From the NCBI GenBank assembly GCA_963667795.1, contig OY764017.1:2356079-2420078 (forward strand): a stretch of 64,000 bases of DNA. Direction: 5' to 3'. This document shows, piece by piece, positions 39,319 to 60,753 of the stretch (its first letter is position 1; every line of letters begins with the position of its first letter). The notes beneath the pieces are model-generated. The model worked only from the letters and a program-made list of their open reading frames with translations, did no database searches and was not told the origin of the DNA. The position numbers were made by a program, and so were the translations under genes. The stretch is from Christensenellaceae bacterium (lineage in GTDB: Bacteria > Bacillota > Clostridia > Christensenellales > CAG-138).

Positions 39319-39539
39319 CATACTATAGAATGATAACCGTTCATTTATATGACGCATTACATAGATCATACGGTTGCCGTTTCCTCCTTTTATTTAATAC
39401 CATGTGTCGAAATTTTTTTAATCCTGATGTGACGGAAATATATTTCTAGAACGATCGCTATCCCCGGGCGGAACGCGACACAAATGTGAGCGAACCTGCG
39501 TTGACCGGGCCAATATATGCTATAGGAAGGGTGGACCGT

Positions 39540-40772
39540 ATGCCGGAAGCAAAGATTAAGATTAAGATGTTTGGCAGTTTTGAGATTGTCGTAAAGGGAA
39601 ATGTGGTGCTACCGCAGTTGCGTCAGGCAAAAAAGACCTGTCAACTTTTGGAATATCTGATTCTAAAGAAAGACCGGCCGGTTCCGCATGAAGAACTGTT
39701 GGAAATGCTATGGTCGGACAAGGAAAATCGAAATCCTGCCACGGCCCTCCGAACGCTGCTGCATCGTTACCGTGCGTTGGTCGATCAGAGCGGGTTACCG
39801 GAACTTTCAAATTCTATCCTGACGGCGCGGGGTGCATACCAATGGAACCCGGACCTTGACTGTGAAATCGACGTATTTGAGTTCGAACGACTCTGTCAGG
39901 AGGCGAGAACGCCCGGCATGAGCAGCCGTGACAGCATCGAACGGTATATGCGCATGCTTGAGCTCTATACGGGACCGCTTTTGACCAACTCTGCCGAGGA
40001 GATGTGGGTCGTTCCGAAGAGCGTATATTATCATGACTTGTTTTTGGAAAGCGTATTCACGATGCTCGACCTGCTAAAGTCCGAAGAGGATTACGATATG
40101 ATCGTTCAGGTCTGCCGCAAGGCGATGGATGTGGATATGTTCGACGAGAGACTTCATTTGGAACTTATGATGGCGCTGGTCAAAACCGGTAAAAAACGCG
40201 AAGCGCTTTCACAGTATTATTTTGCGACTGACTTGCAATACAAACAGCTTGGCATTCAGCCGTCCGGTGAAATCCGCGCGGTTTATAAGCACATCGTGCA
40301 GGCGGACCAGGAGATGGAAGCCGACATCGAAAAAGTACAGAACGTGCTTGAAGAGGAGTCCGAAAGTTATGGTGCCTTTGTCTGCCAATATGAGATATTT
40401 AAGGAAATCTATCAGCTGCAACGGCGCATGCTGGAACGGTATAACGGAACGATGTTCCTTGCGCTTTTGACCGTCAGCAACACGTCTGAACAGCAATTTG
40501 AGAACATGGTGCTGGATAACATCATGAAACGGCTTTTGAATGTGGCGCAGACAAACCTTCGCCGCGGGGACACGATATCCCGCTATAGCGTTATGCAATA
40601 CGTCGTGCTCCTGCCGTCGGTTACATATGAGACGGGCCGCGTGGTCATGGATCGTATCAAAAAGGCATTTTACAACGAATATGTAAAATCCTCCGTTGTG
40701 TTGACCTATAAATTGCGTCCGCTTTGTATCAATAAATATGACACGACCGGGCAAAAGCAAATCAACGAATAA
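39540..40772 (+). CDS. SARP/BTAD-type transcriptional regulator (OmpR-like winged helix + BTAD) with a C-terminal degenerate GGDEF domain
   Basis: The start is at MPEAKIKIKMFGSFEIV. The winged helix is 'LLEYLILKKDRPVPHEELLEMLW'. The BTAD region runs 'FEFERL..YMRMLELYTGPLL....LHLELMMALVKTGKKREALSQY'. The C-terminal 'LRRGDTISRYSVMQYVVLLPS' aligns with 'FRTGDLIARIGGDEYTMLMKT' of the in-window cyclase. Confidence 0.75.
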   Translation: MPEAKIKIKMFGSFEIVVKGNVVLPQLRQAKKTCQLLEYLILKKDRPVPHEELLEMLWSDKENRNPATALRTLLHRYRALVDQSGLPELSNSILTARGAYQWNPDLDCEIDVFEFERLCQEARTPGMSSRDSIERYMRMLELYTGPLLTNSAEEMWVVPKSVYYHDLFLESVFTMLDLLKSEEDYDMIVQVCRKAMDVDMFDERLHLELMMALVKTGKKREALSQYYFATDLQYKQLGIQPSGEIRAVYKHIVQADQEMEADIEKVQNVLEEESESYGAFVCQYEIFKEIYQLQRRMLERYNGTMFLALLTVSNTSEQQFENMVLDNIMKRLLNVAQTNLRRGDTISRYSVMQYVVLLPSVTYETGRVVMDRIKKAFYNEYVKSSVVLTYKLRPLCINKYDTTGQKQINE

Positions 40773-40883: not shown

Positions 40884-40912
40884 TTGACACCATACTCCTT
40901 GCATGATAGAAT
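40884..40912 (+). promoter_or_regulatory. Near-consensus sigma-70 promoter TTGACA-17-(TGa)TAGAAT for the glycan operon
   Basis: Read directly from the sequence. It lies ~100 nt upstream of the ATG at 41016. Confidence 0.6.
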
Positions 40913-41015
40913 TTTTGCTATAAGCGGGGAAAGAGGCCCGTTTGCTTTGTATAGGCAAAAGCCTGGGAAATACCCTGTATCGAAAGCGGTTTTGCCGCAT
41001 CGAAGAAGGAAGAAC

Positions 41016-42854
41016 ATGTATATTCGCATCAAGCGATTTCTGGACATTGCGTTGTCTCTGATAGGCGGCATAGTCCTTTCACCGTTGCTGCTTGCTTTGA
41101 CGCTCGCGGTCAAGCTCGATTCCAAGGGCCCCGTGCTGTTTAGACAAAAGCGCGTGGGCAAGGGAAAGGCATTTTTTTCGATTTTAAAATTTCGCACAAT
41201 GCGTGTAGATACGCCCTGCGACGTCCCAACGCACCAGCTTTGTGATCCGGAGCGGTGGATTACGCGCGTTGGGCGGTTTTTGCGTAAAACGAGTTTGGAT
41301 GAACTGCCGCAGCTTTGGAATATTTTTGTTGGCGACATGTCTCTTGTCGGCCCACGGCCAGCGCTTTGGAATCAGGACGATTTGATTGCACAGCGGGATC
41401 AATATACCGGCCGGTATGGACTCACACCGAACGACGTTCGACCGGGCCTGACGGGGTGGGCACAAATCAACGGGCGAGACGAGTTGCCGATTTGTGTCAA
41501 AGCGAAGTTTGACGGCGAATACGTAGAGCGAATGGGATTTGGTATGGATTGCCGGTGTCTTTTCGGCACTATTGGCAGCGTGCTGCATCATAAAGGTGTT
41601 CGCGAGGGGGTTGCGGAAGTGAAGGAAGATTTGCGGGTAACGTTGGTGTCCGCTTATTTTGCGCCGGAAATCACGCCGATTACGCATCTGTATGCCGATC
41701 TTGCGGAGGACTTGTGCCGGTACGGCGCGTGCGTAACGGTTGTTACCAACTTGGCCAACCGTGGTCTGGACGAGAAAACCCGCGAAGCATATCTGCAAAA
41801 AACGGATGAAACCGTTGCGGAAGGCTATCGTGTTTTGCGCGTTGGAACAAAATCACGCGAGGGCACAAATTTCTTTCGCCGCGGACTACACTTTTTAGTC
41901 AATACACGCGCGCTGCTCAAGGCGGCCAGAAAAACCAAAGCGGACGTATACCTTCTTGGCAGCATGCCGCCGTTCCTCGGTCTTGTAGGCGCGAAACTCA
42001 GCCGCAAAGCACGCACGGTTTATATCCTTCAGGACATCTTTCCGGACAGCATGGTCGCCATGGGAAAATTTACCGAATGGCATCCGGTTGTACGTGCAAG
42101 CCGCCGGATGGAGCAACATACATACAAGAAGAACTCGGCGTTCGTCACCCTGTCTGAAGATATGAAACGGACGCTGACGGCGAGAGGCATTCCGGAAAAG
42201 AAGATTGCAGTTATCCCAAACTGGGCGGACACGGAAGCGGTTAAGCCGATCAGCCGGGAAGACAATCCGCTATTTGACGAATTGAAATTGCCACGGGATC
42301 ATTTCTATGCGGTCTATGCCGGAACCCTTGGTGTTTTACAGGAGCCGGACACGCTGTTGGACGCGGCGAAACTGCTCAAGCCGAAGAAAGATATCCGTGT
42401 GATCATCTTCGGCGGCGGTGCGTTGTATGAACATGTGCACACACGCATCGAAAACGAAAAGATCAGTAATGTTTTGCTCTATCCGCTACTGCCGGAAGAA
42501 CGGGTTGCGGAGGTATATTCGCTTGGTGATGCCGCGCTGGTTCCGCTGAAAGCGGGGACGACGCGCTTTGCAATGCCTTCTAAGACATGGACGGCGCTTG
42601 CGGCCGGGAGGCCGGTAATCGTCTGTGTAGACGCGGGTAGCGAGTGGGCGCGTTCGATCGAGCGGGAAAGCTATGGCATTTGTGTGCATCCCGGCGAACC
42701 AAGGGAGATGGCGGATGCAATTTTGCGATTGCATGCCTGCGCCTTGCCGCTGAACGAGCTCGGCGAACGTGCGCGCAGCTATGTGTGCGAACATGCGTCC
42801 CGTGAATCGGCGACGCGCGCCTATTATGATTGGTTGACAAAGAAATCGTTATAA
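41016..42854 (+). CDS. Fusion of a small monotopic phosphoglycosyl transferase (Bac_transf/PglC-WbaP C-terminal type) with a GT4 (WcaI-like) glycosyltransferase
   Basis: The N-terminal ~200 aa include 'KRFLDIALSLIGGIVLSPLLL..LFRQKRVG..FSILKFRTM' and 'DELPQLWNIFVGDMSLVGPRP'. From ~41631 a GT-B GT4 domain begins with 'LRVTLVSAYFAPE' and contains 'GDAALVPL'. No stop codon separates the two parts. Confidence 0.8.
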   Translation: MYIRIKRFLDIALSLIGGIVLSPLLLALTLAVKLDSKGPVLFRQKRVGKGKAFFSILKFRTMRVDTPCDVPTHQLCDPERWITRVGRFLRKTSLDELPQLWNIFVGDMSLVGPRPALWNQDDLIAQRDQYTGRYGLTPNDVRPGLTGWAQINGRDELPICVKAKFDGEYVERMGFGMDCRCLFGTIGSVLHHKGVREGVAEVKEDLRVTLVSAYFAPEITPITHLYADLAEDLCRYGACVTVVTNLANRGLDEKTREAYLQKTDETVAEGYRVLRVGTKSREGTNFFRRGLHFLVNTRALLKAARKTKADVYLLGSMPPFLGLVGAKLSRKARTVYILQDIFPDSMVAMGKFTEWHPVVRASRRMEQHTYKKNSAFVTLSEDMKRTLTARGIPEKKIAVIPNWADTEAVKPISREDNPLFDELKLPRDHFYAVYAGTLGVLQEPDTLLDAAKLLKPKKDIRVIIFGGGALYEHVHTRIENEKISNVLLYPLLPEERVAEVYSLGDAALVPLKAGTTRFAMPSKTWTALAAGRPVIVCVDAGSEWARSIERESYGICVHPGEPREMADAILRLHACALPLNELGERARSYVCEHASRESATRAYYDWLTKKSL

Positions 42855-42875: not shown

Positions 42876-43916
42876 ATGGAACGGGGGCGACACGATTTGT
42901 TTGATGGAAAAACACTGCTGATCACAGGTGGCACGGGAAGCTTTGGCAACGCCGTGCTGGAGCGGTTTCTGGATTCCGGCATTCAGGAGATTCGGATTTT
43001 TTCGCGGGACGAAAAAAAGCAGGACGATATGCGACGGCATTATCAAAGCGATAAAATCCGGTATTTTATCGGAGACGTACGCGACATCACGTCCGTGCAG
43101 AATGCAATTTATAATGTCGACTATGTGTTTCATGCGGCGGCTCTGAAACAGGTGCCGTCCTGTGAGTTTTTTCCGCTGGAAGCGGTCAAGACCAACGTAT
43201 TTGGTACGGACAATGTGCTGACTGCCGCAATTGACGCAGGCGTTTCGAGGGTGATTTGCCTTTCAACCGATAAGGCGGCCTATCCGATCAACGCCATGGG
43301 TACGAGCAAAGCCATGATGGAAAAGGTCGTGGTTGCAAAATCGCGTACCGTCTCGCCGGAAAAGACGATGATCAGCTGTACACGGTACGGGAACGTCATG
43401 TGCTCGCGGGGGAGCGTGATTCCACTGTTTATAGAGCAAATCAAGGCAGGCGCACCGCTGACGGTAACGAATCTTGATATGACGCGCTTTATTATGAGCC
43501 TGGATGAAGCGGTGGACCTTGTAGTGTATACGTTTGAACATGGCAATACCGGCGACATTATGGTGCAGAAGGCTCCGGCTTGTACGCTCAGCGTGCTGGC
43601 GCAGGCCGTGAAGGAATTGTTTGATGCGGACAATCCGATTCGTACAATCGGAATTCGGCACGGTGAAAAGATGTATGAAACGCTGTTGACCAATGAAGAA
43701 TGTGCGCGTGCCGTCGATATGGGCGGTTATTTCCGTGTTCCCGCGGACTCACGCGACTTGAATTATGAGAAATATTTTGAGCAGGGCAACGCAGAGCGCA
43801 GCAGGCTTACCGAGTTCAACTCCAACAATACAACGTTGCTCAACGTTGAAGAAGTGAAGGAGCGGTTGCTGAAATTGTCGTATATTCGCGCGGAGCTGGC
43901 CGGGTGGAAGCAATAA
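42876..43916 (+). CDS. fnlA: UDP-N-acetylglucosamine 4,6-dehydratase/5-epimerase (CapE/FnlA/WbjB)
   Basis: 'LLITGGTGSFGNAVLERFLD..IRIFSRDEKKQDDMR', 'HAAALKQVPSCEFFP.EAVKTN' and 'STDKAAYPINAMGTSKAMMEK' are nearly collinear with S. aureus CapE as recalled. Confidence 0.9.
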   Translation: MERGRHDLFDGKTLLITGGTGSFGNAVLERFLDSGIQEIRIFSRDEKKQDDMRRHYQSDKIRYFIGDVRDITSVQNAIYNVDYVFHAAALKQVPSCEFFPLEAVKTNVFGTDNVLTAAIDAGVSRVICLSTDKAAYPINAMGTSKAMMEKVVVAKSRTVSPEKTMISCTRYGNVMCSRGSVIPLFIEQIKAGAPLTVTNLDMTRFIMSLDEAVDLVVYTFEHGNTGDIMVQKAPACTLSVLAQAVKELFDADNPIRTIGIRHGEKMYETLLTNEECARAVDMGGYFRVPADSRDLNYEKYFEQGNAERSRLTEFNSNNTTLLNVEEVKERLLKLSYIRAELAGWKQ

Positions 43917-43995: not shown

Positions 43996-45114
43996 ATGAA
44001 GATATTGATCACGGGCGCCAGCGGGTTCATCGGCAAGAATCTAATTTCCACACTGAGAACCTATGGATATACCGATATCCTGTATTACGATGCGGACACT
44101 CCTGCGGAACGGCTTGAGCGTTACTGCGCAGAGTGTGAATTCGTCTATCATCTTGCGGGGGTCAATCGTCCCAAGACACAGGATGAATTTATGCAGGGTA
44201 ATTTCGGGTTTACCGACACGCTGCTTCGCACGCTGATCAAATATAGAAACAACTGCCCGATTATGTTTGCAAGCTCCACACAGGCCGCCTTACCGAATCT
44301 TTACGGCAGAAGCAAAAAAGCAGGTGAAGAACTGTTCTTTCAGTATCAGCGCGAGACAGAAGCGAAAGTCTATGTATTCCGATTTCCAAACGTATTTGGT
44401 AAATGGTCGAAACCAAACTACAACAGCGCGATTGCGACGTTTTGCTATAACATTTCACATGATTTACCGATTACGGTCAACGACCCGTCGACCGAGCTGC
44501 ACCTTGCATACATCGACGATGTTGTCGAAGCGCTTATTGCGCTGCTGGATGACGAAACGACGATGGAAGGCCCGTATTGTGTCGTTCCTATGATACATTC
44601 AGCAAAGCTTGGCGATATTGCCGATCGGATTCGTTCGTTCCGAAAGATACGGAAAGAAAATGAACTGCCGGATATGAGTGCACCGCTGACACGCAAGCTC
44701 TATGCAACGTATTTGAGTTTTTTGCCGACCATGGAATTTGCGTATCCACTGACGATGCATGAAGACGACCGCGGGAGTTTTACGGAGTTTTTGCGCTCCG
44801 ACAGCGGTGGACAGGTTTCCGTCAACATCAGCAAACCGGGCATTGTAAAAGGCAACCACTGGCACCACACGAAGACCGAGAAGTTTCTCGTAGTCTACGG
44901 GTCAGGCGTGATTCGTTTTCGCAGTCCTGATGTGGAGGAAGTTTTGGAATACCATGTCAGCGGAAAGAAGCTGGTCGTGGTAGACATCCCGGTCGGGTAT
45001 GCGCACAGCATTGAAAATACGGGTAAATCAGATATGGTGACGCTGATGTGGGCGAGCGAATGCTTCGATCCTGAACATCCGGACACCATTGCAACGGAGG
45101 TTCAACGAGCATGA
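43996..45114 (+). CDS. fnlB: CapF/FnlB/WbjC reductase-epimerase (SDR N-domain + cupin C-domain)
   Basis: 'MKILITGASGFIGKNL', 'HLAGVNRP', 'FGKWSKPNYNSAIATFCYNI' and 'DDRGSFTEF..GQVSVNISKPGIVKGNHWHHTKTEKFLVV' are present. 372 aa. Confidence 0.9.
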   Translation: MKILITGASGFIGKNLISTLRTYGYTDILYYDADTPAERLERYCAECEFVYHLAGVNRPKTQDEFMQGNFGFTDTLLRTLIKYRNNCPIMFASSTQAALPNLYGRSKKAGEELFFQYQRETEAKVYVFRFPNVFGKWSKPNYNSAIATFCYNISHDLPITVNDPSTELHLAYIDDVVEALIALLDDETTMEGPYCVVPMIHSAKLGDIADRIRSFRKIRKENELPDMSAPLTRKLYATYLSFLPTMEFAYPLTMHEDDRGSFTEFLRSDSGGQVSVNISKPGIVKGNHWHHTKTEKFLVVYGSGVIRFRSPDVEEVLEYHVSGKKLVVVDIPVGYAHSIENTGKSDMVTLMWASECFDPEHPDTIATEVQRA

Positions 45115-46235
45115 CGAAATTAAAGCTCATGACGGTGCTTGGCACACGACCGGAAATCATCCGCCTTTCGGCGGTGATTCCATGTGCGGACAAATACTTC
45201 CACCATATTCTGGTTCATACCGGACAGAACTACGATTATACGCTCAATAAAATTTTCTTTGACGATCTTGGTCTGCGTGCGCCGGACTACTACCTGGAAA
45301 GCGTCGGCAAGGACCTTGGTGAAACCATGGGCAATATCATTGCCAAGTCCTATGAAGTCATGCAGCGTGAAAAACCGGACGCACTTTTGGTGCTTGGAGA
45401 CACCAACTCCGCGCTGGCGGCGATTTCAGCAAAGCGGCTGAAGATACCGATTTTCCATATGGAGGCGGGCAACCGCTGCTGGGACTGGAACGTCCCCGAA
45501 ATGGTCAATCGCGTCATCGTAGACCGCATCAGCGACGTAAACATGCCGTACACGGAGCATTCCCGCCGATACCTGCTTTCGGAAGGATACGACGGAAAGT
45601 TTCTCTTCGTCACCGGATCGCCCATGCGTGAGGTGCTTGAAAAACAGAAGAACAAGATCCTCCAAAGCGACGTTCTTTCCCGTCTTGGATTGGAAGAGAA
45701 AAAATACATCCTACTTTCGGCACATCGTGAAGAAAACATTGACGACGAGGGACACTTTTTGTCACTCATGCGCGCGATCAACGATATTGCCGAGACCTAC
45801 GATATGCCGGTCGTTTATTCCACACACCCGCGAAGCAGGAAGTTCATCGAACAGCGCGCGTTTCGTTTTCACCCGAACGTCCGCTCGCTGGAACCGTTTG
45901 GCTTTTTCGACTATAACCGTTTGCAGCTTTCTTCGTACTGTGTGCTTTCCGACAGCGGGACGCTTTCGGAAGAAAGCGCCATGCTGGACTTTCCAGCCGT
46001 ACTGATCCGAACGTCCACCGAACGCCCGGAAGCGCTGGATGCGGGAACGATCGTGCTTGGCGGTGTAACGCGCAAGAGTGTCGAACAGGCGATGGCGCTG
46101 GCCGTCTCCATGTTTGAAAACCATGAACCGACCGCCATGCCGGACGACTATCAGGATGTCAATGTCAGCGTAAAGGTCGTCAAGATTATTGAAAGCTACG
46201 CAGACATCGTTATGCGCACAACCTGGGGCAGGTAA
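45111..46235 (+). CDS. fnlC: UDP-N-acetylglucosamine 2-epimerase, non-hydrolysing (CapG/FnlC/WbjD)
   Basis: 'VLGTRPEIIRLS', 'HTGQNYDY', 'LGDTNS' and 'HMEAGNRC' are present. 374 aa. It overlaps fnlB by 4 nt. Confidence 0.85.
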   Translation: MTKLKLMTVLGTRPEIIRLSAVIPCADKYFHHILVHTGQNYDYTLNKIFFDDLGLRAPDYYLESVGKDLGETMGNIIAKSYEVMQREKPDALLVLGDTNSALAAISAKRLKIPIFHMEAGNRCWDWNVPEMVNRVIVDRISDVNMPYTEHSRRYLLSEGYDGKFLFVTGSPMREVLEKQKNKILQSDVLSRLGLEEKKYILLSAHREENIDDEGHFLSLMRAINDIAETYDMPVVYSTHPRSRKFIEQRAFRFHPNVRSLEPFGFFDYNRLQLSSYCVLSDSGTLSEESAMLDFPAVLIRTSTERPEALDAGTIVLGGVTRKSVEQAMALAVSMFENHEPTAMPDDYQDVNVSVKVVKIIESYADIVMRTTWGR

Positions 46236-47455
46236 TGAGCACAGGCGTGTTTAGAAATGAGCCTCCAAGGGTTTTATATGGATCGACACTGATGAGCGCG
46301 GAGACGTTTTCCGCGCTGTTTTCGCGTGCGCAGGTACGTCCAAGTCTTGCCGCGCAAAAATATCATGGCCTTATGACAAGAGGATTGGCACACAATGGTG
46401 TTTCCATAACCGCGCTGAGCGTGCCGCCGGTTTCGCGGCAGACGAGCCAAAGGCGGTTTGTACGCGTCCATGATGAAAAAACAAACGGTGTGGCATTTCA
46501 TTATCTGCCGGTGGTTGTCATTCCAGGCCTTAAGCATGCTTTGGTTGCGGCAAGCGCGTTTTTGTATACACTGGTACACTTGGGACGATCGGATTATGCT
46601 GTTTGCGACGGATTGAATATAGCGTTAAGCATGGGGATTCGTGCCGCCGCAAAGTTGAAGCGACGTCCATGCATTGCGATTGTAACCGACGTGCCGGACA
46701 TCCTTGCCGGAGGACAAACACAAACTTCGAAAACGAACACGCATCTTCTGGCACGGTTTGACGGATATATTTTGCTAACCGAGGCGATGAACACGCTGGT
46801 TAACCCGTTCGGGAAACCGTTCTTGGTTGCGGAGGGGCAAGTTGACGCAGCCATGTCGGATGCTGCGAATGATTTGAGCGGCAAGTGCTCCGAAAAAATC
46901 TGTCTATACGCGGGCATGCTACACGAAAAATACGGCGTGGTCAAATTGGTGGAAGCGTTTCGAAAAGTGAACGATGAGGCGGCACGCCTGGTTCTTTATG
47001 GCGACGGCGATGCGACGGAACGAATCCGCGAAATTGCAAACGAAGATGAGCGGATCGAATACCGCGGCATGGCCGATAACCGAACCGTCGTGCAGGAAGA
47101 ATTGAAAGCGACGCTGCTGATCAATCCTCGGCCTTCGGACGAAGACTTCACAGCTTATTCGTTTCCGTCGAAAAATCTGGAGTACATGGTTTCGGGAACG
47201 CCTGTTCTAACGACGAAACTGCCGGGGATGCCGCGTGAATATGACCAATATGCATATCTGTTCGACGACGAATCGGTGGATGGAATGGCAAAAACACTGA
47301 ACGAAGTGCTCAGGCTTTCGCTTGAGGAACTGCATTCGATGGGGAGTCGAGCAAAAGCATTTGTATTAAGCAACAAATCCAATACCGCGCAGGCGCGGCG
47401 TGTACTCGAATTTATGAAGACGCTTGATCGGAACATAACAACACAAGGAAAGTGA
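46235..47455 (+). CDS. Glycosyltransferase family 4 (GT-B)
   Basis: The C-terminal half contains 'YAGMLHEKYGVVKLVEAF..LVLYGDGD' and 'FPSKNLEYMVSGTPVLTT' (E-x7-E type). Confidence 0.75.
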   Translation: MSTGVFRNEPPRVLYGSTLMSAETFSALFSRAQVRPSLAAQKYHGLMTRGLAHNGVSITALSVPPVSRQTSQRRFVRVHDEKTNGVAFHYLPVVVIPGLKHALVAASAFLYTLVHLGRSDYAVCDGLNIALSMGIRAAAKLKRRPCIAIVTDVPDILAGGQTQTSKTNTHLLARFDGYILLTEAMNTLVNPFGKPFLVAEGQVDAAMSDAANDLSGKCSEKICLYAGMLHEKYGVVKLVEAFRKVNDEAARLVLYGDGDATERIREIANEDERIEYRGMADNRTVVQEELKATLLINPRPSDEDFTAYSFPSKNLEYMVSGTPVLTTKLPGMPREYDQYAYLFDDESVDGMAKTLNEVLRLSLEELHSMGSRAKAFVLSNKSNTAQARRVLEFMKTLDRNITTQGK

Positions 47456-47459
47456 TAGG

Positions 47460-48518
47460 ATGGCTGCAAACGAATGTACAGCCCGACAACCAAATATACC
47501 GGAAGGTCCGCAGGCGCGTGTTTTATTCTTTGGCGGTGCGAGTGTATCCATAGAAACCGATATACCCTCGACCGATGTTGAACTGAAGCGGTATGCTAAC
47601 GAGCACGATTATCGTTGTGGAGCCCTGATCTCCGGCACCGGAACGCCCGACTGGCTCAAGGAGCAGGATATCGGCATCGTTTCGTTGCCCGGCATGACGC
47701 AACAGGAACTTTCCATCGTTCGGGAGCAATTGAGCCCATCGGTAGGAATCGGCATTGGTGAGAATGCACCGCTGGCAAACCGACCTGCGGTGATCGCGGT
47801 CAATGGTGTTCGCCTGGGCGTTTTGTCTTTAAACGAAACGACATGGCGCAGCGACGCATACGCCGTGGAAGCGGATATTGAGGATTTGTCCGTCTATGAT
47901 CATGTTCGCATGTTGCTTCCGCAATGCGATCATGTTATTGTATTTTGCCGAACAGGACTGCCGGGGTTTGAAATGCCGCTTCCAGAATGGCGCGAGCGAT
48001 ACCGGCACCTGATAGAATCGGGTGCTAGCATTGTGCTGGGGGTTCGCTCGGACGAGCCGCTAGGTTGGGAAGAGTATGGGCACGGCGTGGCGTTTTACGG
48101 CATCGGCACGTTAACAAGAGAGTCGCTTGCAGTATCGGTGACCTTTGAACGAAACGGCCGATTCACATACGAGTCACGACTGCTGGAAGCAATTGACGGT
48201 AAGATCAGCTTTTCAGCCGATGATACGAAAAAGGAAGCGATCAACGCAAAGAATGCACTGTTGGTTGACGAAGCACAGTATTTGGACGAAACTGAGCGCG
48301 CTTGTGTCGCTTTTTACCAAGCCGAAGGCTATACGGCGCTACTGAACGTGTGCGCAAAACGCGGCGCGCTTTCCGGCTTGCTGCGCAAAAAGCAAGCCGA
48401 CAATCGTCGAATCGACGAAGCGATGCTGAAAGATTTACTTGTAGGAACCTCGCGTAGGTATGCTGTACTGCGGGCACTGAACGCAACCGAACGGACGAAA
48501 GACGGGGACACGAAATGA
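47460..48518 (+). CDS. CapA/PGA_cap-like (metallophosphatase-fold) paralog with all metal-ligand motifs replaced
   Basis: It is collinear with the bona fide CapA-family protein at 59471-60658, but the motifs differ. GDLM becomes FGGA, ANNH becomes LPGM, PHWG becomes CRTG, GSHPH becomes GVRSD, and MGNF becomes IGTL. Confidence 0.55.
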   Translation: MAANECTARQPNIPEGPQARVLFFGGASVSIETDIPSTDVELKRYANEHDYRCGALISGTGTPDWLKEQDIGIVSLPGMTQQELSIVREQLSPSVGIGIGENAPLANRPAVIAVNGVRLGVLSLNETTWRSDAYAVEADIEDLSVYDHVRMLLPQCDHVIVFCRTGLPGFEMPLPEWRERYRHLIESGASIVLGVRSDEPLGWEEYGHGVAFYGIGTLTRESLAVSVTFERNGRFTYESRLLEAIDGKISFSADDTKKEAINAKNALLVDEAQYLDETERACVAFYQAEGYTALLNVCAKRGALSGLLRKKQADNRRIDEAMLKDLLVGTSRRYAVLRALNATERTKDGDTK

Positions 48519-49786
48519 AGATTTTATGGGTGGTCGCACCGATGCTGCCGCAGATTGCGAAACTGACAGGCAACGCCCGGCAATATGCGGGTGGTTGGCT
48601 GGTGTCCGTTTGCGACGGCCTGCTTTCAAACGAAGCAAACGAGCTGTTCATTTGTTATCTTTCGAACGGACGTAAACAAAGCGGAAAGAGCGGCAGGCTC
48701 TCCTATGAATCATATGGCCAGGACACGTTGCGGTATTCAGTTCGGACGCAGCAACAATTTGAAGAAATCCTCCGGCGTGAACAGCCGGACGTCATCCATG
48801 TTTGGGGGACGGAGTATCCGCTTACGTTGGCGATGACCAACGCCTGTGAACAGACGGGGATGCTTGATCGCATGGTCGTCAGCATTCAAGGGCTGTGTTC
48901 CGTTTATGCATGGCATTTTGCCGCAGGGTTGCCGCAGAAGGTGCTGCGAGGGGTGACCTTCCGGGATTTACTCCGGCGGGACAACATCTACAGGCAGCGA
49001 GAGAAATATGTCGTTCGCGGCGCGTTTGAAACGGCCGCACTGCAAAAAGCGGAGCATGTAATTGGCCGGACGGACTGGGACCGTACTTGCGTGCGTCAGA
49101 TCAATTCGGAAGCGTCATACCATTTTTGTAACGAGACTCTACGGGACACGTTTTATGAAGGAAAATGGAGCGCAGACGGCTGTAAACGGCACACGATCTT
49201 CGTTTCTCAGGGAAACTATCCGATCAAGGGGTTGCATAAGGCTCTTGCGGCGTTGGTGTTTTTAAAGAGAGACTTTCAGGATGTTCGACTGGTTACAACC
49301 GGTGCAGACCCGCGTGACGGTTCTTTGAAAAAGCGGATGCGGCGGTCAAACTATGCAAGATATCTGGCAAAGATTATTCGGGATTGGGGTTTGGACGATC
49401 ACGTTGCATTTGTCGGGATGCTGTCGGCAGAGCAGATGAAACAGCAGTATCTGGATGCACATGTTGCGCTGACGCCGTCGTCCATTGAAAACAGCTCAAA
49501 CTCCATCGGCGAAGCGATGTTGCTTGGTGTGCCCGTTGTGGCGAGCTATGTCGGCGGCACGCCGGACTTGCTGGACCATGGTGTGGAAGGATTCTTGTAT
49601 CCGTTCGACGCGCCGTACATGATGGCCGAATACATACGCCGTATTTTTTCAGACGACGCGCTTGCAATAAAACTTGGAGAGAATGGACGCGTCCGTGCAC
49701 AGAAACGGCACGATGCGGCACGTAATTTATCCGAATTAAACGAAATTTACGCACGCCTTGCAAGCGGAACTGAAAAGAAAGGCTGA
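48515..49786 (+). CDS. Glycosyltransferase family 4
   Basis: 'MKILWVV', 'GGW', 'ENSSNSIGEAMLLGVPVVASYVGG' and 'GVEGFLY' form GT4 motifs. 423 aa. Confidence 0.8.
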   Translation: MKILWVVAPMLPQIAKLTGNARQYAGGWLVSVCDGLLSNEANELFICYLSNGRKQSGKSGRLSYESYGQDTLRYSVRTQQQFEEILRREQPDVIHVWGTEYPLTLAMTNACEQTGMLDRMVVSIQGLCSVYAWHFAAGLPQKVLRGVTFRDLLRRDNIYRQREKYVVRGAFETAALQKAEHVIGRTDWDRTCVRQINSEASYHFCNETLRDTFYEGKWSADGCKRHTIFVSQGNYPIKGLHKALAALVFLKRDFQDVRLVTTGADPRDGSLKKRMRRSNYARYLAKIIRDWGLDDHVAFVGMLSAEQMKQQYLDAHVALTPSSIENSSNSIGEAMLLGVPVVASYVGGTPDLLDHGVEGFLYPFDAPYMMAEYIRRIFSDDALAIKLGENGRVRAQKRHDAARNLSELNEIYARLASGTEKKG

Positions 49787-49787
49787 T

Positions 49788-51125
49788 ATGAAACTTTTCG
49801 GCATGGACAACCCGATACGAAAGCGGTTTGCCGCAAACACAGGCTGGCTGATTGCGCAGAGCGTTTTTCAGTATGTCCTTTCGGCGGTCATCGGCATCAT
49901 TGCCGCGCGCTTTCTCGGCCCGGCGAATTATGGCATTCTTGGTTATGGCGTTTCGCTGATGGCCATGTTTCAGGCGTTTTGCACGCTTGGGCTGAATGAC
50001 ATACAGATCACGAATATGATCGAAACACCGGACGACATCGGCGGTATTATTGGAACAGCGCTTGTTATGCGTCTGACCTCATCGACGCTGTCCATCCTGG
50101 GCATCGCTGCTATAGCGATGATCTCCCGTCCCGGCGAAAAGCTGCTGCTGATCGTGACCGTGCTGCAAAGCCTCCAACTGATTCTCCAGGCATTCGATGT
50201 GTTTCGGCTTTGGTTCCAAATGAAGTTGATGAGCAAATATACCGCCATCGGCTCCATCATCGGCAATATCGCCTGCAGCGTGTGGCGCATCGTGCTCCTG
50301 ATTCAGGGTGCGTCGGTGGAGTGGTTCGCATTGACCAGCGTTATACAGATGTTTACGAATTACCTGTTCGTCGCACCGCTGTTTTTTGCAAAGGCAAAGA
50401 TGCGGCTTTGGGTTTCGTTTTCCATCGGAAAGCGGCTGCTGAAACGAAGCTGGCATTTTATCTTGTCGGGCTTGACCAACGCGGCTTCCGCACACTTCAG
50501 CAAGCTCTACCTTGGCGTCGCACTGGGTGACGCGATGCTGGGTTATTATAACGCCGCGTATACAATAGCAACTATGTGGCTGTTTGTTCCACTGGCAATT
50601 GTGGATTCGGCGTTTCCCGTGCTGCTGCAAACCAAGAAAAACAACCCGGAAGCATTCCGCCCACGGTACCAGCTGATGCTGATGGCGGTACTGGGAATCG
50701 GCGTCTGTGCAGGCATCGGCCTGAGCATTCTTGCACCTTGGATTATCAATCTGCTGTACGGTCCGGACTATGCGCCTGGCGCAGATGTTCTGCGTATCGT
50801 TGCCTGGATTGGGATTCTCTCTAATGTCGGTTCCGCGCGGAACATCTGGATTCAGGCGGAAAGCAAACAGAGCTCTGTGAAATACATTTCGTTGCTCTCA
50901 GCAATTGCAAGCATTGTGCTGAGTGTTATACTGATTCCAATCTTCGGCCTCAATGGTGCGGCAATCGCCTGTGTCGTGAGCTTCCTTGTTTCATCGTTTG
51001 TGGCAACGTGGGCGCTGAAGAGTACACGACCGTTTGTATCACTGTATCTTGGATCGTTTGGCACGCTCTATCAGGTTGGGCGAAACTTCCTGCGGAACAG
51101 AAAAGCTGGCGGTGATAACAAATGA
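49788..51125 (+). CDS. wzx: Oligosaccharide flippase Wzx (MOP/polysaccharide biosynthesis protein family)
   Basis: The start at MKLFGMD lies 2 nt after the upstream stop. About 445 aa with about 12 TM segments. 'NTGWLIAQSVFQYVLSAVIGIIAARFLGP.NYG' is present. Confidence 0.8.
   Translation: MKLFGMDNPIRKRFAANTGWLIAQSVFQYVLSAVIGIIAARFLGPANYGILGYGVSLMAMFQAFCTLGLNDIQITNMIETPDDIGGIIGTALVMRLTSSTLSILGIAAIAMISRPGEKLLLIVTVLQSLQLILQAFDVFRLWFQMKLMSKYTAIGSIIGNIACSVWRIVLLIQGASVEWFALTSVIQMFTNYLFVAPLFFAKAKMRLWVSFSIGKRLLKRSWHFILSGLTNAASAHFSKLYLGVALGDAMLGYYNAAYTIATMWLFVPLAIVDSAFPVLLQTKKNNPEAFRPRYQLMLMAVLGIGVCAGIGLSILAPWIINLLYGPDYAPGADVLRIVAWIGILSNVGSARNIWIQAESKQSSVKYISLLSAIASIVLSVILIPIFGLNGAAIACVVSFLVSSFVATWALKSTRPFVSLYLGSFGTLYQVGRNFLRNRKAGGDNK
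50327..51075 (+). repeat. Direct repeat copy 1 (749 bp, inside wzx)
   Basis: It is identical to 53682-54430 (offset 3355, no indels) except for A/G differences at 50362/53717 and 50400/53755. I verified this by comparing the sequence and three reading frames of ORF translations. Confidence 0.9.
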
Positions 51126-52154
51126 AACGATATAAAGTACTGATCATTCAGCAAACGATTCCCAGCTATCGGGTTCCGATTTTCAACTTGTTGGCGCAGA
51201 AAACGGATCTAACGGTTGTATACGAATATGGAGCAAGGCCATCGGATGCAGCATTTTGCATGAAACAAATGCAGACATTCCACATCACTCGCGTTGGAAA
51301 GGTTATCGCGACGGTTTGAAAAAACTGACGAACGGGTACGACGTCGTGATCAATTCTTACGATACACCGCTGTATGCGGTACGTAAGCTGGTTCGCCTAA
51401 AAAACATGGCTTTGGATTAATCCACTGGGGTATTGGCGTATCGGCCAGCTATTCGTCCCATTTTGATGCCGGGTATATAAACAGACCGTTTTACGATAAC
51501 ATTCTTAGGGAATCTGACGCCTGTTTGTTTTACAGCGTGTATCCAATTGAGAAATATTCGAATGCAGGCTGGTCGCGCGAGAAGCTTTTCACCGCACCGA
51601 ATACTGTCCGTGTTGTACGGGAAGAAACGCCGCAAAAAAAGGACACCATCTTGTTTTTAGGGTCACTCTATCCGCAAAAAGGATCTGATGAGTTGCTGGA
51701 ACAATATTTTCGGGCGTACAGCGTGGATTCAAATGTACCGAAACTGATTTTCATTGGCGACGGCAGCGAACGAGCTCGAATTGAAAGCTGGATATCCCAA
51801 AAGAATCTGAAAGATCGGATTTCGCTGACCGGGGCGATTTACGATGATGCCGTACTCGGCAAATATTTTTCAAAAGCGATCGTGTGCGTTTCACCAAAAC
51901 AGGCAGGGTTGACGGTTTTGAAGAGCATGGGGTGCGGCGTAGCGTATGTGACGAGAAAAGATGTGATTACCGGTGGCGAAATTTTTAACATTCAGGATGG
52001 GATAAACGGCGTTTTATACGAACAACAAGACGAACTGGGCGATATCATTCTTGATTTGATCAAAAACCCGGACAAATACCATCAAATGGGACGAAGAGCA
52101 AGGGAGCATTACGATCAAAATAGAAGCCGTCTGATATGGTGGATGGATTTATGA
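51122..52154 (+). pseudogene. Glycosyltransferase family 4 gene disrupted by at least 2 frameshifts
   Basis: The N-terminus 'MKRYKVLIIQQTIPSYRVPIFNLL' (51122-51319) reads in one frame and the middle 'GYRDGLKKLTNGYDVVI..' in a second. A third frame carries 'GLIHWGIGVS..' through the C-terminal GT4 domain (51525-52154: 'ILFLGSLYPQKG', 'FIGDGSER', 'GGEIF'). The second shift coincides with an A6 run at ~51403-51408, where A7 would restore the frame. Confidence 0.7.
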
Positions 52155-52203: not shown

Positions 52204-53319
52204 ATGAAAAAAGTAATGGTTATTTTCGGCACTCGGCCGGAAGCGATAAAAATGGGTCCTGTTGTGCTGGCACTAAAAGCAAGCGGCGACATTGAAACGG
52301 TCGTCTGCGTGACTGGGCAGCATAAGGAGATGCTTCAGCAAGTTCTTGATTGTTTTGCTATCGAACCGGATTATGATCTTGCCGTCATGCGTGAACGGCA
52401 GACGTTGTTTGACATCACGCGCAACATTCTGGCTTCCATCGGCGAAGTTTTACAGAAAGAAAATCCGGATATTGTGCTTGTCCATGGCGACACAACAACG
52501 ACGTTTGCTTCCGCGCTCGCAGCATTTTACCTGAAGATTCCGGTTGGACATGTGGAAGCCGGTCTCCGAACGCATGATCTGTACGCGCCGTTTCCGGAAG
52601 AATTTAACCGAAAAGCTACGTCGATCGTTGCGGCGCTTAACTTTGCGCCGACCGAATTAGCCAAACAGAATCTTCGGAGCGAAGGATATGATGAAGCAAG
52701 TATCTTTGTTACGGGAAATACGGCGATCGACGCCATGAAGACAACCGTGCAAGAAACGTTTGAATCTCCCCTGACGCATTGGCTTGGCGACAGCCGGCTG
52801 ATTCTTTTAACCGCCCATAGGCGAGAGAACATTGGTGAGCCGCTGAAAAATATCTTTCGTGCGGTTCGCAGGATCGTAGAGGAAACACCTGACGTTAAGG
52901 TGATCTATCCTGTGCACATGAACCCCGCAGTGCGCGAATCGGCAAACGAAATTCTCTCCGGCAACGACAATATTCGGCTCATCGAGCCGCAGGACGTGCT
53001 GACATTCCACAACCTGATGGCGCGCGCGTATTTGATTATGACCGACAGCGGCGGCATTCAGGAAGAAGCTCCTTCGCTGGGGAAACCGGTTTTAGTGCTG
53101 CGGGATGTAACGGAACGACCGGAAGGCATCGAAGTAGGCACGCTTAAGTTGACCGGGGCCGATGAACAGACGGTTTATCACGAAGCAATGCGCTTGTTAA
53201 CCGACAAGGATGAATATATGCGTATGAGTACGGCAAAAAACCCGTATGGCGACGGATTGGCATCCGAACGCATTGTCAAAGCAATATTGGAATGGAATGG
53301 TGGGCAAACAACGCTGTAA
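52204..53319 (+). CDS. wecB: UDP-N-acetylglucosamine 2-epimerase, non-hydrolysing (WecB/MnaA)
   Basis: 'VIFGTRPEAIKMGPV', 'VTGQHKEML', 'VHGDTTTTFA', 'HVEAGLRT' and 'TDSGGIQEEAPSLGKPVLVLR' are present. 371 aa. Confidence 0.9.
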   Translation: MKKVMVIFGTRPEAIKMGPVVLALKASGDIETVVCVTGQHKEMLQQVLDCFAIEPDYDLAVMRERQTLFDITRNILASIGEVLQKENPDIVLVHGDTTTTFASALAAFYLKIPVGHVEAGLRTHDLYAPFPEEFNRKATSIVAALNFAPTELAKQNLRSEGYDEASIFVTGNTAIDAMKTTVQETFESPLTHWLGDSRLILLTAHRRENIGEPLKNIFRAVRRIVEETPDVKVIYPVHMNPAVRESANEILSGNDNIRLIEPQDVLTFHNLMARAYLIMTDSGGIQEEAPSLGKPVLVLRDVTERPEGIEVGTLKLTGADEQTVYHEAMRLLTDKDEYMRMSTAKNPYGDGLASERIVKAILEWNGGQTTL

Positions 53320-53681: not shown

Positions 53682-54430
53682 CGCATTGACCAGCGTTATA
53701 CAGATGTTTACGAATTGCCTGTTCGTCGCACCGCTGTTTTTTGCAAAGGCAAAGGTGCGGCTTTGGGTTTCGTTTTCCATCGGAAAGCGGCTGCTGAAAC
53801 GAAGCTGGCATTTTATCTTGTCGGGCTTGACCAACGCGGCTTCCGCACACTTCAGCAAGCTCTACCTTGGCGTCGCACTGGGTGACGCGATGCTGGGTTA
53901 TTATAACGCCGCGTATACAATAGCAACTATGTGGCTGTTTGTTCCACTGGCAATTGTGGATTCGGCGTTTCCCGTGCTGCTGCAAACCAAGAAAAACAAC
54001 CCGGAAGCATTCCGCCCACGGTACCAGCTGATGCTGATGGCGGTACTGGGAATCGGCGTCTGTGCAGGCATCGGCCTGAGCATTCTTGCACCTTGGATTA
54101 TCAATCTGCTGTACGGTCCGGACTATGCGCCTGGCGCAGATGTTCTGCGTATCGTTGCCTGGATTGGGATTCTCTCTAATGTCGGTTCCGCGCGGAACAT
54201 CTGGATTCAGGCGGAAAGCAAACAGAGCTCTGTGAAATACATTTCGTTGCTCTCAGCAATTGCAAGCATTGTGCTGAGTGTTATACTGATTCCAATCTTC
54301 GGCCTCAATGGTGCGGCAATCGCCTGTGTCGTGAGCTTCCTTGTTTCATCGTTTGTGGCAACGTGGGCGCTGAAGAGTACACGACCGTTTGTATCACTGT
54401 ATCTTGGATCGTTTGGCACGCTCTATCAGG
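53682..54430 (+). repeat. Direct repeat copy 2 (749 bp)
   Basis: See copy 1. Confidence 0.9.
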
Positions 54431-54471
54431 CAGTGAGGAATTACTTGAGAAATAGCAAGGCGGGCGCTTAG
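53682..54471 (+). pseudogene. 3' fragment (~260 codons) of a second wzx, with its own divergent last ~14 codons
   Basis: It matches wzx residues ~181-430 and then reads 'QAVRNYLRNSKAGA*', where copy 1 reads 'QVGRNFLRNRKAGGDNK*'. It lacks the N-terminal ~180 codons and has no start context of its own. Confidence 0.8.
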
Positions 54472-55920: not shown

Positions 55921-55959
55921 ATCGCCGTATATGTTGAGAAGTTGGCGGAGGAGACCGCA

Positions 55960-57141
55960 TTGAAGCCGGCTGCGGTACTGGACATAGGGAGTTCAAAGGT
56001 TATCTGTCTGTGTGGCAGTTTTGTCAATCGGGATGGCATTACGGTGCACGGTGTTTCGGTGTGCCCGTATGAAGGCTATCAAAACGGCGTTTTTTCTAAT
56101 CATCGATCGCTGCATAGCGCAATCGTCGAAGCAGTATCCCGCGCCGAGCAGGAAGCCCGTATGCGCATCCGCGAAATCGCGTTGAGTGTACCGTCTCCGT
56201 TCTGCAAGATCGTGATGACGGAAGCGACACTGGCAATTGGCAGCCGCAACAAACGGGTGATGGCAGAAGATATTGACGACGTCATCTCGCTTTCCCTGAA
56301 AAAGGTCAAGCTGAGCGGGTATGTGCTCATGCACAGCACGCCGGTGTCCTTTACGGTTGGCGGGGTGGTGTCTTCTACACTTCCGGCGGGCGCGAAAACC
56401 GAAGAACTTGGCGCGCTCGTGTCGCATATGTATGTGCAGGAAGAGTTTGTCAAAACGATCGAGCAGGTGCTCGCAACGCTAGACATTGAGATTTCCATGA
56501 GCGTATCGACACAGCTTTGCGGTGCGCTGGCGATCATTCCCGAAAAGGAACGCGTACGCCCCGCGATACTCATCGACGTTGGATATACGCACACAGATGT
56601 GTCCATCGTGGAAAATGCGGCGCTGACCGATATACGCACCGTAGAAATAGGCGGCAAACATTTTGCTTCCGATCTCGCGTTCGGCCTTGACGTGCCGATT
56701 GAAACGGCGGAACTTGTGAAGCGGCGTTATGTCTTTTTGCAGGAACCACTCAGCACTACAGAAATCGTTCGTTCGCCTTCGGGCGCCAAGCGAGTCGACC
56801 ACGCTGCGATTGAGCTGATTATCGAAGCGCGTGCGAGCGAACTGGTTTCGATGATCCGCGATGCGCTCAAGGAAATGGGCGTTTCGCCGGAAGCAAGCCC
56901 GGTGACCTATTTAACAGGCGGCGGGATTGCAATGATGAAAGGCGGCATCGAATACCTCAAACGCGGCTTGCAGCTGTCCATTCAGCCGGACACGCCGTGG
57001 GTGGCGGATATGGATACGCCTAACTATACAAGCGCATTTGCGGCTTTGGATTTTGTTCTGCGCGCTACGAGCGACGATGTTGTAACCAACACCGCGCCCG
57101 CAACCGTTGCAGACAGGCTTCGTAACCTTTTTACCAAATAA
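55960..57141 (+). CDS. ftsA: Cell division protein FtsA
   Basis: A TTG start at 55960 is preceded by ggcggaggag; the ORF is open from TTG at 55942. The actin-like motif 'AVLDIGSSKV', 'LIDVGYTHTDVSIV' and 'YLTGGGIAMMKG' are present, and the amphipathic C-terminus is 'DRLRNLFTK'. Confidence 0.85.
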   Translation: MKPAAVLDIGSSKVICLCGSFVNRDGITVHGVSVCPYEGYQNGVFSNHRSLHSAIVEAVSRAEQEARMRIREIALSVPSPFCKIVMTEATLAIGSRNKRVMAEDIDDVISLSLKKVKLSGYVLMHSTPVSFTVGGVVSSTLPAGAKTEELGALVSHMYVQEEFVKTIEQVLATLDIEISMSVSTQLCGALAIIPEKERVRPAILIDVGYTHTDVSIVENAALTDIRTVEIGGKHFASDLAFGLDVPIETAELVKRRYVFLQEPLSTTEIVRSPSGAKRVDHAAIELIIEARASELVSMIRDALKEMGVSPEASPVTYLTGGGIAMMKGGIEYLKRGLQLSIQPDTPWVADMDTPNYTSAFAALDFVLRATSDDVVTNTAPATVADRLRNLFTK

Positions 57142-57153
57142 GGGGGACAAACT

Positions 57154-58485: not shown

Positions 58486-58501
58486 ATTTGTTTGCACACA
58501 T

Positions 58502-58536
58502 AAAGCGCCGCAATTCTGCGGCGCTTTGTTGTTTTG
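58502..58536. terminator. Rho-independent terminator between convergent ftsZ and sanA-like genes
   Basis: aaagcgccgca-attc-tgcggcgcttt is followed by gttgtttt. Confidence 0.85.
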
Positions 58537-60658: not shown

Positions 60659-60753
60659 AGAAGCAAGTGAGAATAAAAAACTGACAAAACTTGACGTGTA
60701 TCCGTCGGGTTTTGTTTGCTATACTGGATGCAACGAAAGGAGAAAGACTGCCT

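Follow-up and report, generated by a model that had tools for sequence, protein, structure and literature searches.

Proteins of the CapA/PGA_cap family are common in genome annotations; to our knowledge MslH alone has a defined mechanism, and the role of such proteins in glycan loci other than those for poly-gamma-glutamate (PGA) is unstudied. Here we describe a degenerate member of the family, encoded at 47460-48518 on the forward strand of a 64,000-nucleotide stretch of DNA (the window) from a Christensenellaceae bacterium (assembly GCA_963667795.1, contig OY764017.1, positions 2,356,079 to 2,420,078). The overall best explanation of our data, to which we give a probability of about 0.6, is that of a CapA-fold protein with a dead metal site that would act as a non-catalytic helper in the assembly of a surface glycan.

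Comparison with described systems

Vps29 of the retromer and the B subunits of DNA polymerases alpha, delta and epsilon are non-catalytic proteins with a metallophosphatase fold. Like the protein described here they keep the calcineurin-like fold with degenerate catalytic residues, and they are retained as binding or scaffold modules with known partners; they are eukaryotic or archaeal and unrelated to our protein in sequence and context. VPS29 has been described as a scaffolding protein (PMC5748213). In its working mode our protein would most resemble such Vps29-type non-catalytic modules, by analogy and not by membership.

The characterised example of the family itself is MslH (PDB 8GQ9), the C-terminal Trp epimerase of a lasso peptide, which carries out a Ca-dependent epimerisation next to a carboxylate (PMC10406935). 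It is cytoplasmic and belongs to the PGA_cap family, as does our protein, but the two are only 12-14% identical and their contexts differ: MslH is found in a lasso-peptide cluster and has a peptide substrate, whereas the gene studied here lies among genes for sugar-nucleotide enzymes, GT4 glycosyltransferases and a Wzx-type flippase. Mutation of D11, E44, N87, H88, D91, H259, H261 or H295 abolishes the activity of MslH (PMC10406935). The residues aligned to these eight are, in the same order, G, I, G/M, T, E, R, G and D, which means that both dyads (H88/D91 and H295/D11) and the Ca ligands (E44, N87, H259 and H261) are replaced. PgsA/CapA of the PgsBCA system shares PF09587 with our protein; it is held at the membrane by an anchor and acts together with PgsB and PgsC, while our protein has neither the anchor nor the ligands. 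No PgsB-like (Mur-ligase-like) or PgsC-like domains were found among the open reading frames scanned at ~26.5-63.2 kb, the first 26 kb being unscanned. Evidently, the protein is neither a PgsA nor an MslH-type epimerase. Removal of pgsA shifts the D/L ratio of PGA from 75/25 to 5/95 (PMC6029982), an effect that is consistent with epimerase chemistry in intact members of the family. For the PgsBCA complex our literature search gave no structure.

In an O-antigen cluster, that of E. coli SD2019180, the role of capA (orf11), whose product is likened to ours by description and not by comparison, is not yet elucidated (PMC10606467); this agrees with the statement in the first-pass annotation that CapA-like proteins of non-PGA glycan loci are essentially uncharacterised in their role. 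Our literature searches found no description of a degenerate CapA clade, and queries for PGA_cap or PF09587 gave nothing relevant.

The gene, its product and the predicted fold

The following features of the gene and of its comparator in the window are referred to below.

47460-48518, forward strand: gene of the 352-aa cytoplasmic CapA/PGA_cap-fold protein with a degenerate metal site
47511-48212, forward strand: metallophosphatase-like core, residues ~18-251 (column counts, hhalign, secondary structure of the model)
47907-47933, forward strand: R150-M-L-L-P-Q155-C156-D157-H158 ('RMLLxQCDH'), a motif invariant in the clade of degenerate proteins (alignments)
47976-47993, forward strand: 'PLPEWR' signature, residues 173-178 (alignment)
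48222-48512, forward strand: C-terminal five-helix region, residues ~255-351 (helices of the model; region covered by hhalign)
48515-48518, forward strand: ATGA overlap between the stop of the gene and the start of the downstream GT4 gene (GT4b), read from the sequence as translational coupling
59471-60658, forward strand: intact CapA-family protein of the window (PF09587 223 bits, every motif present, N-terminal hydrophobic segment)

The open reading frame starts with an ATG; a ribosome-binding-like stretch, AAGGAAAG, lies a short way upstream, and 4 nt separate the ATG from the end of the preceding GT4 gene. The 4-nt overlap with the downstream GT4 gene, reported by the first-pass annotation, was found as described. 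Hydrophobic segments are absent from the product: its highest Kyte-Doolittle mean over 19 residues is 0.99, against a maximum of 2.07 at residues 3-22 in the intact CapA-family protein of the window. The claim that a signal peptide is missing therefore holds in this hydropathy scan, which found no hydrophobic N-terminus or membrane segment. The accompanying contrast with a lipobox in the intact protein holds only in part: our protein has no anchor, but the 'lipobox' of the other (NLGC) is non-canonical and only its signal or anchor sequence is safe. The product is soluble and cytoplasmic and has the fold of CapA/PGA_cap proteins, that of calcineurin-like metallophosphatases.

PF09587 (PGA_cap) matches the protein above its cut-off (40.6 bits versus 27, E 2.8e-10), the match being limited to residues 97-216, which correspond to profile positions 111-249 of 255. 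No NCBIfam model matches it, a single-sequence search of PDB sequences gave no meaningful match, and a search of the same sequences with the family profile reached MslH as the sole solved structure (E ~1e-3). An AlphaFold2 model, built from an alignment of 29 homologues, has a predicted local distance difference test score (pLDDT) of 87.9 and a predicted TM-score (pTM) of 0.87, and is laid out as a beta-sandwich core (residues ~18-251) followed by five C-terminal helices (~255-351). Compared with the PDB by Foldseek, the model has MslH as its best match (8GQ9, E 5.7e-12, TM 0.60), followed by 5'-nucleotidases, YmdB-type phosphatases and SoxB. The 24 matches at E<=1e-3 all have the metallophosphatase fold; Vps29 (5xck_B, E 1.8e-4) and the B subunit of DNA polymerase alpha (8foj_C, E 4e-3) stand lower in the list. 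The fold proposed by the first-pass annotation is thus confirmed by the predicted model, and the PF09587 similarity is present. No similarity to other catalytic families was found in the Pfam, NCBIfam, PDB-sequence or profile searches.

Intact cytoplasmic relatives

The first-pass annotation had set the protein against the intact CapA-family protein of the window, with which it was said to be collinear. That protein turns out to be a distant relative with a weak BLASTP match (E 4e-5, 26% identity across 145 aa), and full-length collinearity is found with intact cytoplasmic relatives instead. The comparison is best made with a large family of proteins encoded in Wzx-type glycan loci, which are CapA-like, cytoplasmic, intact and ~375 aa long. 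The intact protein of the window was rejected as functional partner or closest paralogue, being extracytoplasmic and so little alike; near a homologue of the degenerate gene, a protein of its type was detected solely in locus L001 among the related loci. It has no pgsB or pgsC neighbours, is flanked by a DUF218 gene (58552-59244, reverse strand) and a radical-SAM gene (60691-61620), and finds its best NCBIfam match, far below cut-off, in the MslH model.

A profile search covering 1.84 billion representative proteins returned 7051 matches (representative clusters) at E<=1e-3, a number that includes more distant CapA-family proteins too, and 75 at E<=1e-30. The best matches outside the degenerate clade are ~375 aa long, begin with 'M..LLF.GD', have no signal peptide, and align over the full length of our protein including the C-terminal helices; hhalign of the degenerate clade against 40 intact members gives a probability of 100% (E 3.6e-60, 341 columns). 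The helical region lies beyond the Pfam PGA_cap model and is common to the intact cytoplasmic family, with Y274, R333, R338 and L340 shared. PLPEWR and G202-W203-E204 are likewise common to our protein and this family, and absent from the intact protein of the window. By these signatures, the C-terminal helices, the lack of a signal peptide and the glycan context, the protein belongs to what we call the PLPEWR/GWE cytoplasmic family, a grouping defined in this analysis and not a curated one. Intact members resemble it in length (~350-380 aa), lack of a signal peptide, full-length collinearity and location in a glycan locus; they differ in that they keep the metal and acid/base residues (115-121 of 121), which the clade has lost except for the motif IV His of about half its members.

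Loss of the metal and acid/base site

We counted the ligand columns in 121 intact relatives and in 36 members of the degenerate clade. The former ligand positions are listed below with the number of intact relatives that keep the residue (n=121 unless given otherwise), the replacements in the clade and the residue in the window protein.

D of motif I: kept in 119/119; G in 34/36 of the clade; G26 in the window
N of N.E: kept in 121; A/S/G in 35/36; A55
E of N.E: kept in 121; L or other; I57
First N of NNH: kept in 121; G in 27/36; G78
Second N of NNH: kept in 121; M/L/V in 32/36; M79
H of NNH: kept in 121; variable; T80
D after NNH: kept in 116; variable; E83
H of motif IV: kept in 121; H retained in 20/36, R in 14/36; R164
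E of H.G.E: kept in 120; P in 27/36; P168
H.H of motif V: kept in 121 and 121; P or gap, then D/G/S; R196 and D198
N of GN: kept in 115; T/A/S; T217

Since these positions are near-invariant in the intact relatives (95-100%) and are replaced across the 36-member clade, the substitutions are not due to chance. Each of the five motif substitutions listed by the first-pass annotation is borne out by the alignment with intact relatives; the inventory had missed a further lost motif, the N.E of 'GNLE' (A55, I57). Our protein accordingly has none of the motifs of an active calcineurin-like metallophosphoesterase (D, N.E, NNH..D, H.G.E, H.H and GN). The replacement residues are mostly small or hydrophobic and consistent across the clade (G, A/S, L, G, M/L, P, P, T), a pattern that suggests that the pocket was remodelled or filled in an orderly way and did not simply decay at random. 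A displacement of the ligands to shifted positions was considered and rejected: where the clade conserves an acidic or His residue, it is one that intact relatives conserve too or one located at a strand N-terminus. Conserved in clade and intact relatives alike are E126, D157, E176 and E204. We hold it to be very likely that the gene is functional while its ancestral site is dead.

The clade has acquired constraints of its own. At 20 or more positions conservation reaches >=90% in the clade but not in intact relatives, the set including R118, D139, D147, R150, L152, Q155, C156, H158, S190, G209, L223 and N232. RMLLxQCDH is invariant in the clade and, except for D157, variable in intact relatives; it occupies the N-terminal end of the strand leading up to the former motif IV. 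As judged from fold topology, most of the clade-specific residues would be at strand N-termini, opposite the old active site. They could mark a newly constrained surface, for which we favour an interface with a partner.

Phylogeny and selection

In a neighbour-joining tree rooted on the intact CapA-family protein of the window, all degenerate proteins (36/36) fall into one clade, whose sister is a pair of intact proteins (P0039 and P0042). Because the clade is monophyletic, the site was lost once. The genes of both sisters directly follow a gene 56-62% identical to the upstream GT4 gene of the window (GT4a), and a Wzx gene 59% identical to the window's comes next after that of P0042, which it overlaps by 4 nt; the two CapA-like proteins are themselves 25-28% identical to ours. 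As the sisters are flanked by orthologues of GT4a and Wzx, the single loss took place inside a GT4-CapA-like-Wzx arrangement and was followed by accelerated divergence.

Retention under selection, which the first-pass annotation had proposed, is confirmed by the ratio of nonsynonymous to synonymous substitution rates (dN/dS). It is 0.150 (dS 0.67) against the orthologue in L001, a Christensenellaceae metagenome-assembled genome (MAG), 0.162 against that in L002, and 0.10-0.29 in eight further pairs that include reduced loci (those in which ftsA directly follows the gene, see below; within them, 0.13-0.29). Neighbouring genes have values of 0.009-0.131. The reading frame is intact in 29/29 full-length copies from related loci and in the window, and an alignment of 29 homologues has 33 invariant columns. 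Housekeeping neighbours of L001 are 95-99% identical to those of the window, and the other genes of the locus 88-99%, against 82% for our protein; in more distant loci its identity is 36-44%, compared with 64-68% for GT4a, 57-66% for GT4b, 66-81% for the CapF-like protein and 82-89% for FtsA. Selection on the gene is purifying, yet it is the fastest-evolving gene of the locus, under a comparatively loose constraint that is typical of binding proteins.

The glycan locus in the window and in related genomes

In the window the gene is part of a surface-glycan locus between a regulator gene and ftsA-ftsZ, with the following features.

39486-40772, forward strand: regulator with Trans_reg_C and BTAD domains, syntenic left border (Pfam, synteny)
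40884-40944, forward strand: conserved promoter TTGACA-17-TAGAAT with TG, then a hairpin (promoter scan, alignment of 7 loci)
41016-42854, forward strand: initiating phosphoglycosyl transferase (Bac_transf) fused to a GT4 domain (Pfam)
42876-43916, forward strand: FnlA/CapE-like (Pfam Polysacc_synt_2 and Polysacc_syn_2C)
43996-45114, forward strand: FnlB/CapF-like (Pfam Epimerase and Polysacc_synt_C)
45111-46235, forward strand: FnlC/CapG-like UDP-GlcNAc 2-epimerase (Pfam Epimerase_2)
46235-47455, forward strand: upstream GT4 glycosyltransferase, GT4a (Pfam Glycos_transf_1 and Glyco_trans_1_4)
48515-49786, forward strand: downstream GT4 glycosyltransferase, GT4b (Pfam; NCBIfam EpsE-like match below cut-off)
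49758-51125, forward strand: Wzx-type flippase (Pfam Polysacc_synt and Polysacc_synt_3)
55942-58529, forward strand: syntenic right border with ftsA (55942-57141) and ftsZ (57154-58485) (Pfam FtsA, Tubulin and FtsZ_C)
58500-58529, forward strand: only strong forward-strand terminator, after ftsZ (terminator scan)

The FnlA/B/C-like set, from the established knowledge of CapEFG/FnlABC, presumably makes a UDP-2-acetamido-2,6-dideoxy-L-hexose of the L-FucNAc type. The best promoter match in the window (40884-40912, extended -10, 11/12 matches) is the likely start of the glycan operon, and the terminator scan of the window found no strong forward-strand terminator from there to the end of ftsZ. 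The alignment of 7 loci shows near-invariant blocks at this promoter and leader. The element (promoter and hairpin AAGCGGGG...CCCGTTTG) lies directly past the BTAD regulator gene in every locus type, whatever gene follows; it recurs at 6522-6582 in L003 and 5166-5194 in L025, with the consensus TTGACA-17-TA[GA]AAT with TG, and may serve as a 5' leader element or as the target of the regulator. Rfam gave no RNA family at threshold between 39 and 59.5 kb, leader hairpin included. The mechanically called start of the phosphoglycosyl transferase-GT4 fusion, a TTG at 40884, falls inside the promoter; with a conserved ribosome-binding site and ATG at 41016, in frame at codon 45, and homologues that align from residue ~40-45, the true start is likely this ATG.

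Our context scan used one genome per GTDB species and found 39 loci, of which 31 are MAG-derived and labelled Christensenellaceae, Christensenella, Oscillospiraceae, Clostridia or Eubacteriales. All 31 related loci have a BTAD-type regulator to the left of the homologue of our gene and ftsA-ftsZ to its right. Four types of locus are discerned, apart from the truncated L027, where ftsA comes directly after the homologue.

Type IV (full), the window and 11 loci: phosphoglycosyl transferase-GT4 fusion, FnlA/B/C-like set, GT4a, our gene, GT4b, Wzx and others
Type III, 1 locus: phosphoglycosyl transferase-GT4 fusion, FnlA/B/C-like set, our gene, ftsA
Type II, 12 loci: GT4-only gene, CapF-like gene, our gene, ftsA
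Type I, 5 loci, plus L004 with other content: CapF-like gene, our gene, ftsA

The gene overlaps the start of GT4b by 4 nt in all 12 full loci, and on its upstream side the stop of GT4a overlaps its start by 4 nt in 8 of them and precedes it by a 3-4 nt gap in the other 4. In 20 of the 31 related loci ftsA, not GT4b, directly follows the gene, and GT4a is also absent from 19 of these reduced loci, those that reach far enough upstream. Here the gene is found between the CapF-like (or FnlC) gene, 100-220 nt after it, and ftsA, 170-300 nt ahead of it; across all loci its most constant neighbour is the CapF-like gene. In the tree of the clade the full loci are spread across deep branches with types I and II nested within them, so that the full type is the ancestral one; at least three reductions of the locus followed, and our gene survived each of them.

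In the reduced loci a conserved terminator-like hairpin (GCGCGG...CCGCGCTGTTTT) separates the CapF-like gene from ours. It is GC-rich with a short T tract, lies ~50-70 nt from the start of the gene, and is found at 7902-7930 in L003, at 7838-7859 in L025 and in six other reduced loci; no promoter was detected there. This arrangement suggests an attenuated read-through expression of the gene in reduced loci. The ftsA-ftsZ genes of the related loci are not preceded by other dcw genes, the variable surface-glycan locus being wedged before them. The locus was rejected as a part of the dcw division cluster: its regulator is preceded by asnA, asnS, a peptidase gene and unrelated genes. The regulator itself has a weak sub-threshold GGDEF-like match at its C-terminus (E 0.004), and a bona fide dCache-PAS-GGDEF protein is encoded at 27667-29616.

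At the end of the flippase gene and downstream of it, a near-perfect direct repeat of ~750 bp (50327-~51090 and 53682-~54445, 98-100% identity, spacing 3355 nt) duplicates the 3' part of wzx. It brackets a truncated GT4 gene (51525-52154, 209 aa versus ~361 aa elsewhere) and a second UDP-GlcNAc 2-epimerase gene (52204-53319), and leaves a wzx 3' fragment at 53686-54471; the close relative L001 has no such cassette. The repeat must be an artefact of the assembly or else a scar left by recombination or insertion.

The neighbourhoods of the intact relatives differ from that of our gene. The intact members examined adjoin wzx and often a PP-loop (SGGxDS) ATPase or ATP-grasp gene, neither of which is present in the locus of the degenerate gene. 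In 5 of ~10 loci (from Bacteroidota, Methanohalophilus and metagenomic contigs) the intact gene adjoins one for a PP-loop ATPase of ~450-550 aa that carries SGGxDS and is Asn-synthase/QueC-like. The loci surveyed include L032 (7-1023), L033 (6038-7699), L034 (6565-7950), L036 (8815-10182) and L045 (10710-12320), besides L040 (9450-10346). In one intact-family locus an ATP-grasp gene of TupA type lies past wzx, two genes downstream, and a further locus has a weak AMP-binding match. These neighbourhoods suggest an uncharacterised enzyme pair, CapA-like protein plus PP-loop ATPase, acting on a carboxylate in glycan biosynthesis; by analogy with the chemistry of MslH, the reaction of such a pair could be an amidation plus an epimerisation.

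Proposed role and alternatives

The protein descends from the widespread intact cytoplasmic CapA-like enzymes of Wzx-dependent glycan loci, its whole metal and acid/base site having been lost at the base of one Christensenellales-type Clostridia clade. The metal-dependent chemistry of the family would then no longer be possible for it, and its role may be that of an adapter or binding subunit, without catalysis of its own, in the cytoplasmic assembly of an L-FucNAc-type surface glycan. In full loci it would be made in fixed proportion with both GT4 enzymes, through the 4-nt gene overlaps. The GT4 enzymes would be dispensable for its role, the gene having been kept beside the CapF-like gene and upstream of ftsA after their repeated loss. 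The binding surface is probably either the remodelled active-site cleft or the patch formed by R118, D147, R150, Q155, C156, H158 and S190. Loss of the catalytic residues, retention of the fold and purifying selection together describe a pseudoenzyme, and a lineage-specific pseudoenzyme is the most likely status of the protein, a repurposed enzyme being less likely. The specific adapter or binding role is tentative, and we would not bet on it at even odds. Some points weigh against our interpretation. A new site, catalytic or metal-binding, might be made up of the invariant C156-D157-H158 and invariant Arg and Glu residues, and the three-dimensional placement of the clade-invariant residues is taken from fold topology. 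The motif IV His is kept by ~55% of clade members. The hairpin between the CapF-like gene and ours in reduced loci weakens the case for a stoichiometric partnership with CapF.

The first-pass annotation had already called the protein a pseudo-enzyme that is cytoplasmic and retained under selection. The dead site, the location and the selection stand; the name itself is the most likely reading, next to which a new clade-specific site has to be weighed. Such a repurposed enzyme would have built a catalytic or cofactor site from C156, D157, H158, R118, D139, D147, R150 and S190 and would carry out a different reaction of the glycan pathway. The clade-specific positions conserved at >=90%, at least 20 of them with a contiguous Q-C-D-H and several Arg and Asp, fit this idea, as does the purifying selection that retains the gene even in minimal loci. 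We nevertheless consider it unlikely: fold topology would place the residues at strand N-termini, on the far side from the usual catalytic face, intact relatives share D157, which is probably structural, the searches found no similarity to other catalytic families, and the fastest evolution in the locus fits a binding protein better than an enzyme. In a broader version, which we rate as no more probable, the patch (R118, D147, R150, Q155, C156, D157, H158 and S190), having evolved on the opposite face once the dimetal site had been filled in, would belong to a repurposed module, ligand-binding or catalytic, needed independently of the Wzx-type genes. If true, this would explain why the gene survived with the CapF-like gene through at least three collapses of the locus, always upstream of ftsA-ftsZ, and the module might be a sensor or regulator that couples the supply of envelope-sugar precursors to envelope growth.

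The first-pass annotation had further suggested a scaffold or substrate-binding subunit for the flanking GT4 enzymes, and a dedicated scaffold or substrate-presenting subunit whose function depends on these two would account well for the tight coupling in full loci (the overlap with GT4b in 12/12, the overlap or 3-4 nt gap with GT4a) and for the like coupling of the intact sisters to a GT4a orthologue. The coupling to both GT4 genes is real, but the gene is kept without GT4b in 20/31 loci and without GT4a in 19 of these. The reduced loci are nested in full-type lineages, that is, the GT4 genes were repeatedly lost while ours stayed, with dN/dS at 0.13-0.29. As it survives the repeated loss under purifying selection, its function cannot depend on those two GT4 enzymes, and the dedicated scaffold is distinctly improbable. 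The constant position between the BTAD regulator and ftsA-ftsZ, immediately ahead of ftsA in the reduced loci, with no strong forward-strand terminator up to the end of ftsZ in the window, may bring to mind a role in cell division or envelope growth, either by modulating ftsA-ftsZ expression or by linking the status of the envelope glycan to division. This we regard as very improbable: synteny alone may explain the adjacency, the homologue in L003 is followed by a terminator-like hairpin, full loci have up to 7 kb of glycan genes between our gene and ftsA, and the ancestry is clearly that of a glycan-locus enzyme family. A decaying gene or an annotation artefact without function, finally, could be read from the highest amino-acid divergence in the locus and the loss of the entire catalytic site. 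Selection and conservation effectively refute it, with the intact frame in 29/29 copies and the window, the 33 invariant columns and a confident, compact model; a decaying pseudogene in particular is ruled out by the dN/dS of 0.10-0.29.

Significance for the CapA/PGA_cap family

The degenerate clade is a pseudoenzyme branch of the CapA/PGA_cap family, with a function that we infer. It amounts to a natural experiment, in which one clade lost its entire active site once, kept the fold and the selection on it, and outlived most of its original neighbours. An automatic label such as 'CapA family' or 'capsule biosynthesis protein' would wrongly imply both poly-gamma-glutamate synthesis and enzymatic activity. 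The clade also exposes its intact parent family, which points to an uncharacterised step of surface-glycan biosynthesis in Bacteroidota, Clostridia, spirochaetes and archaea.

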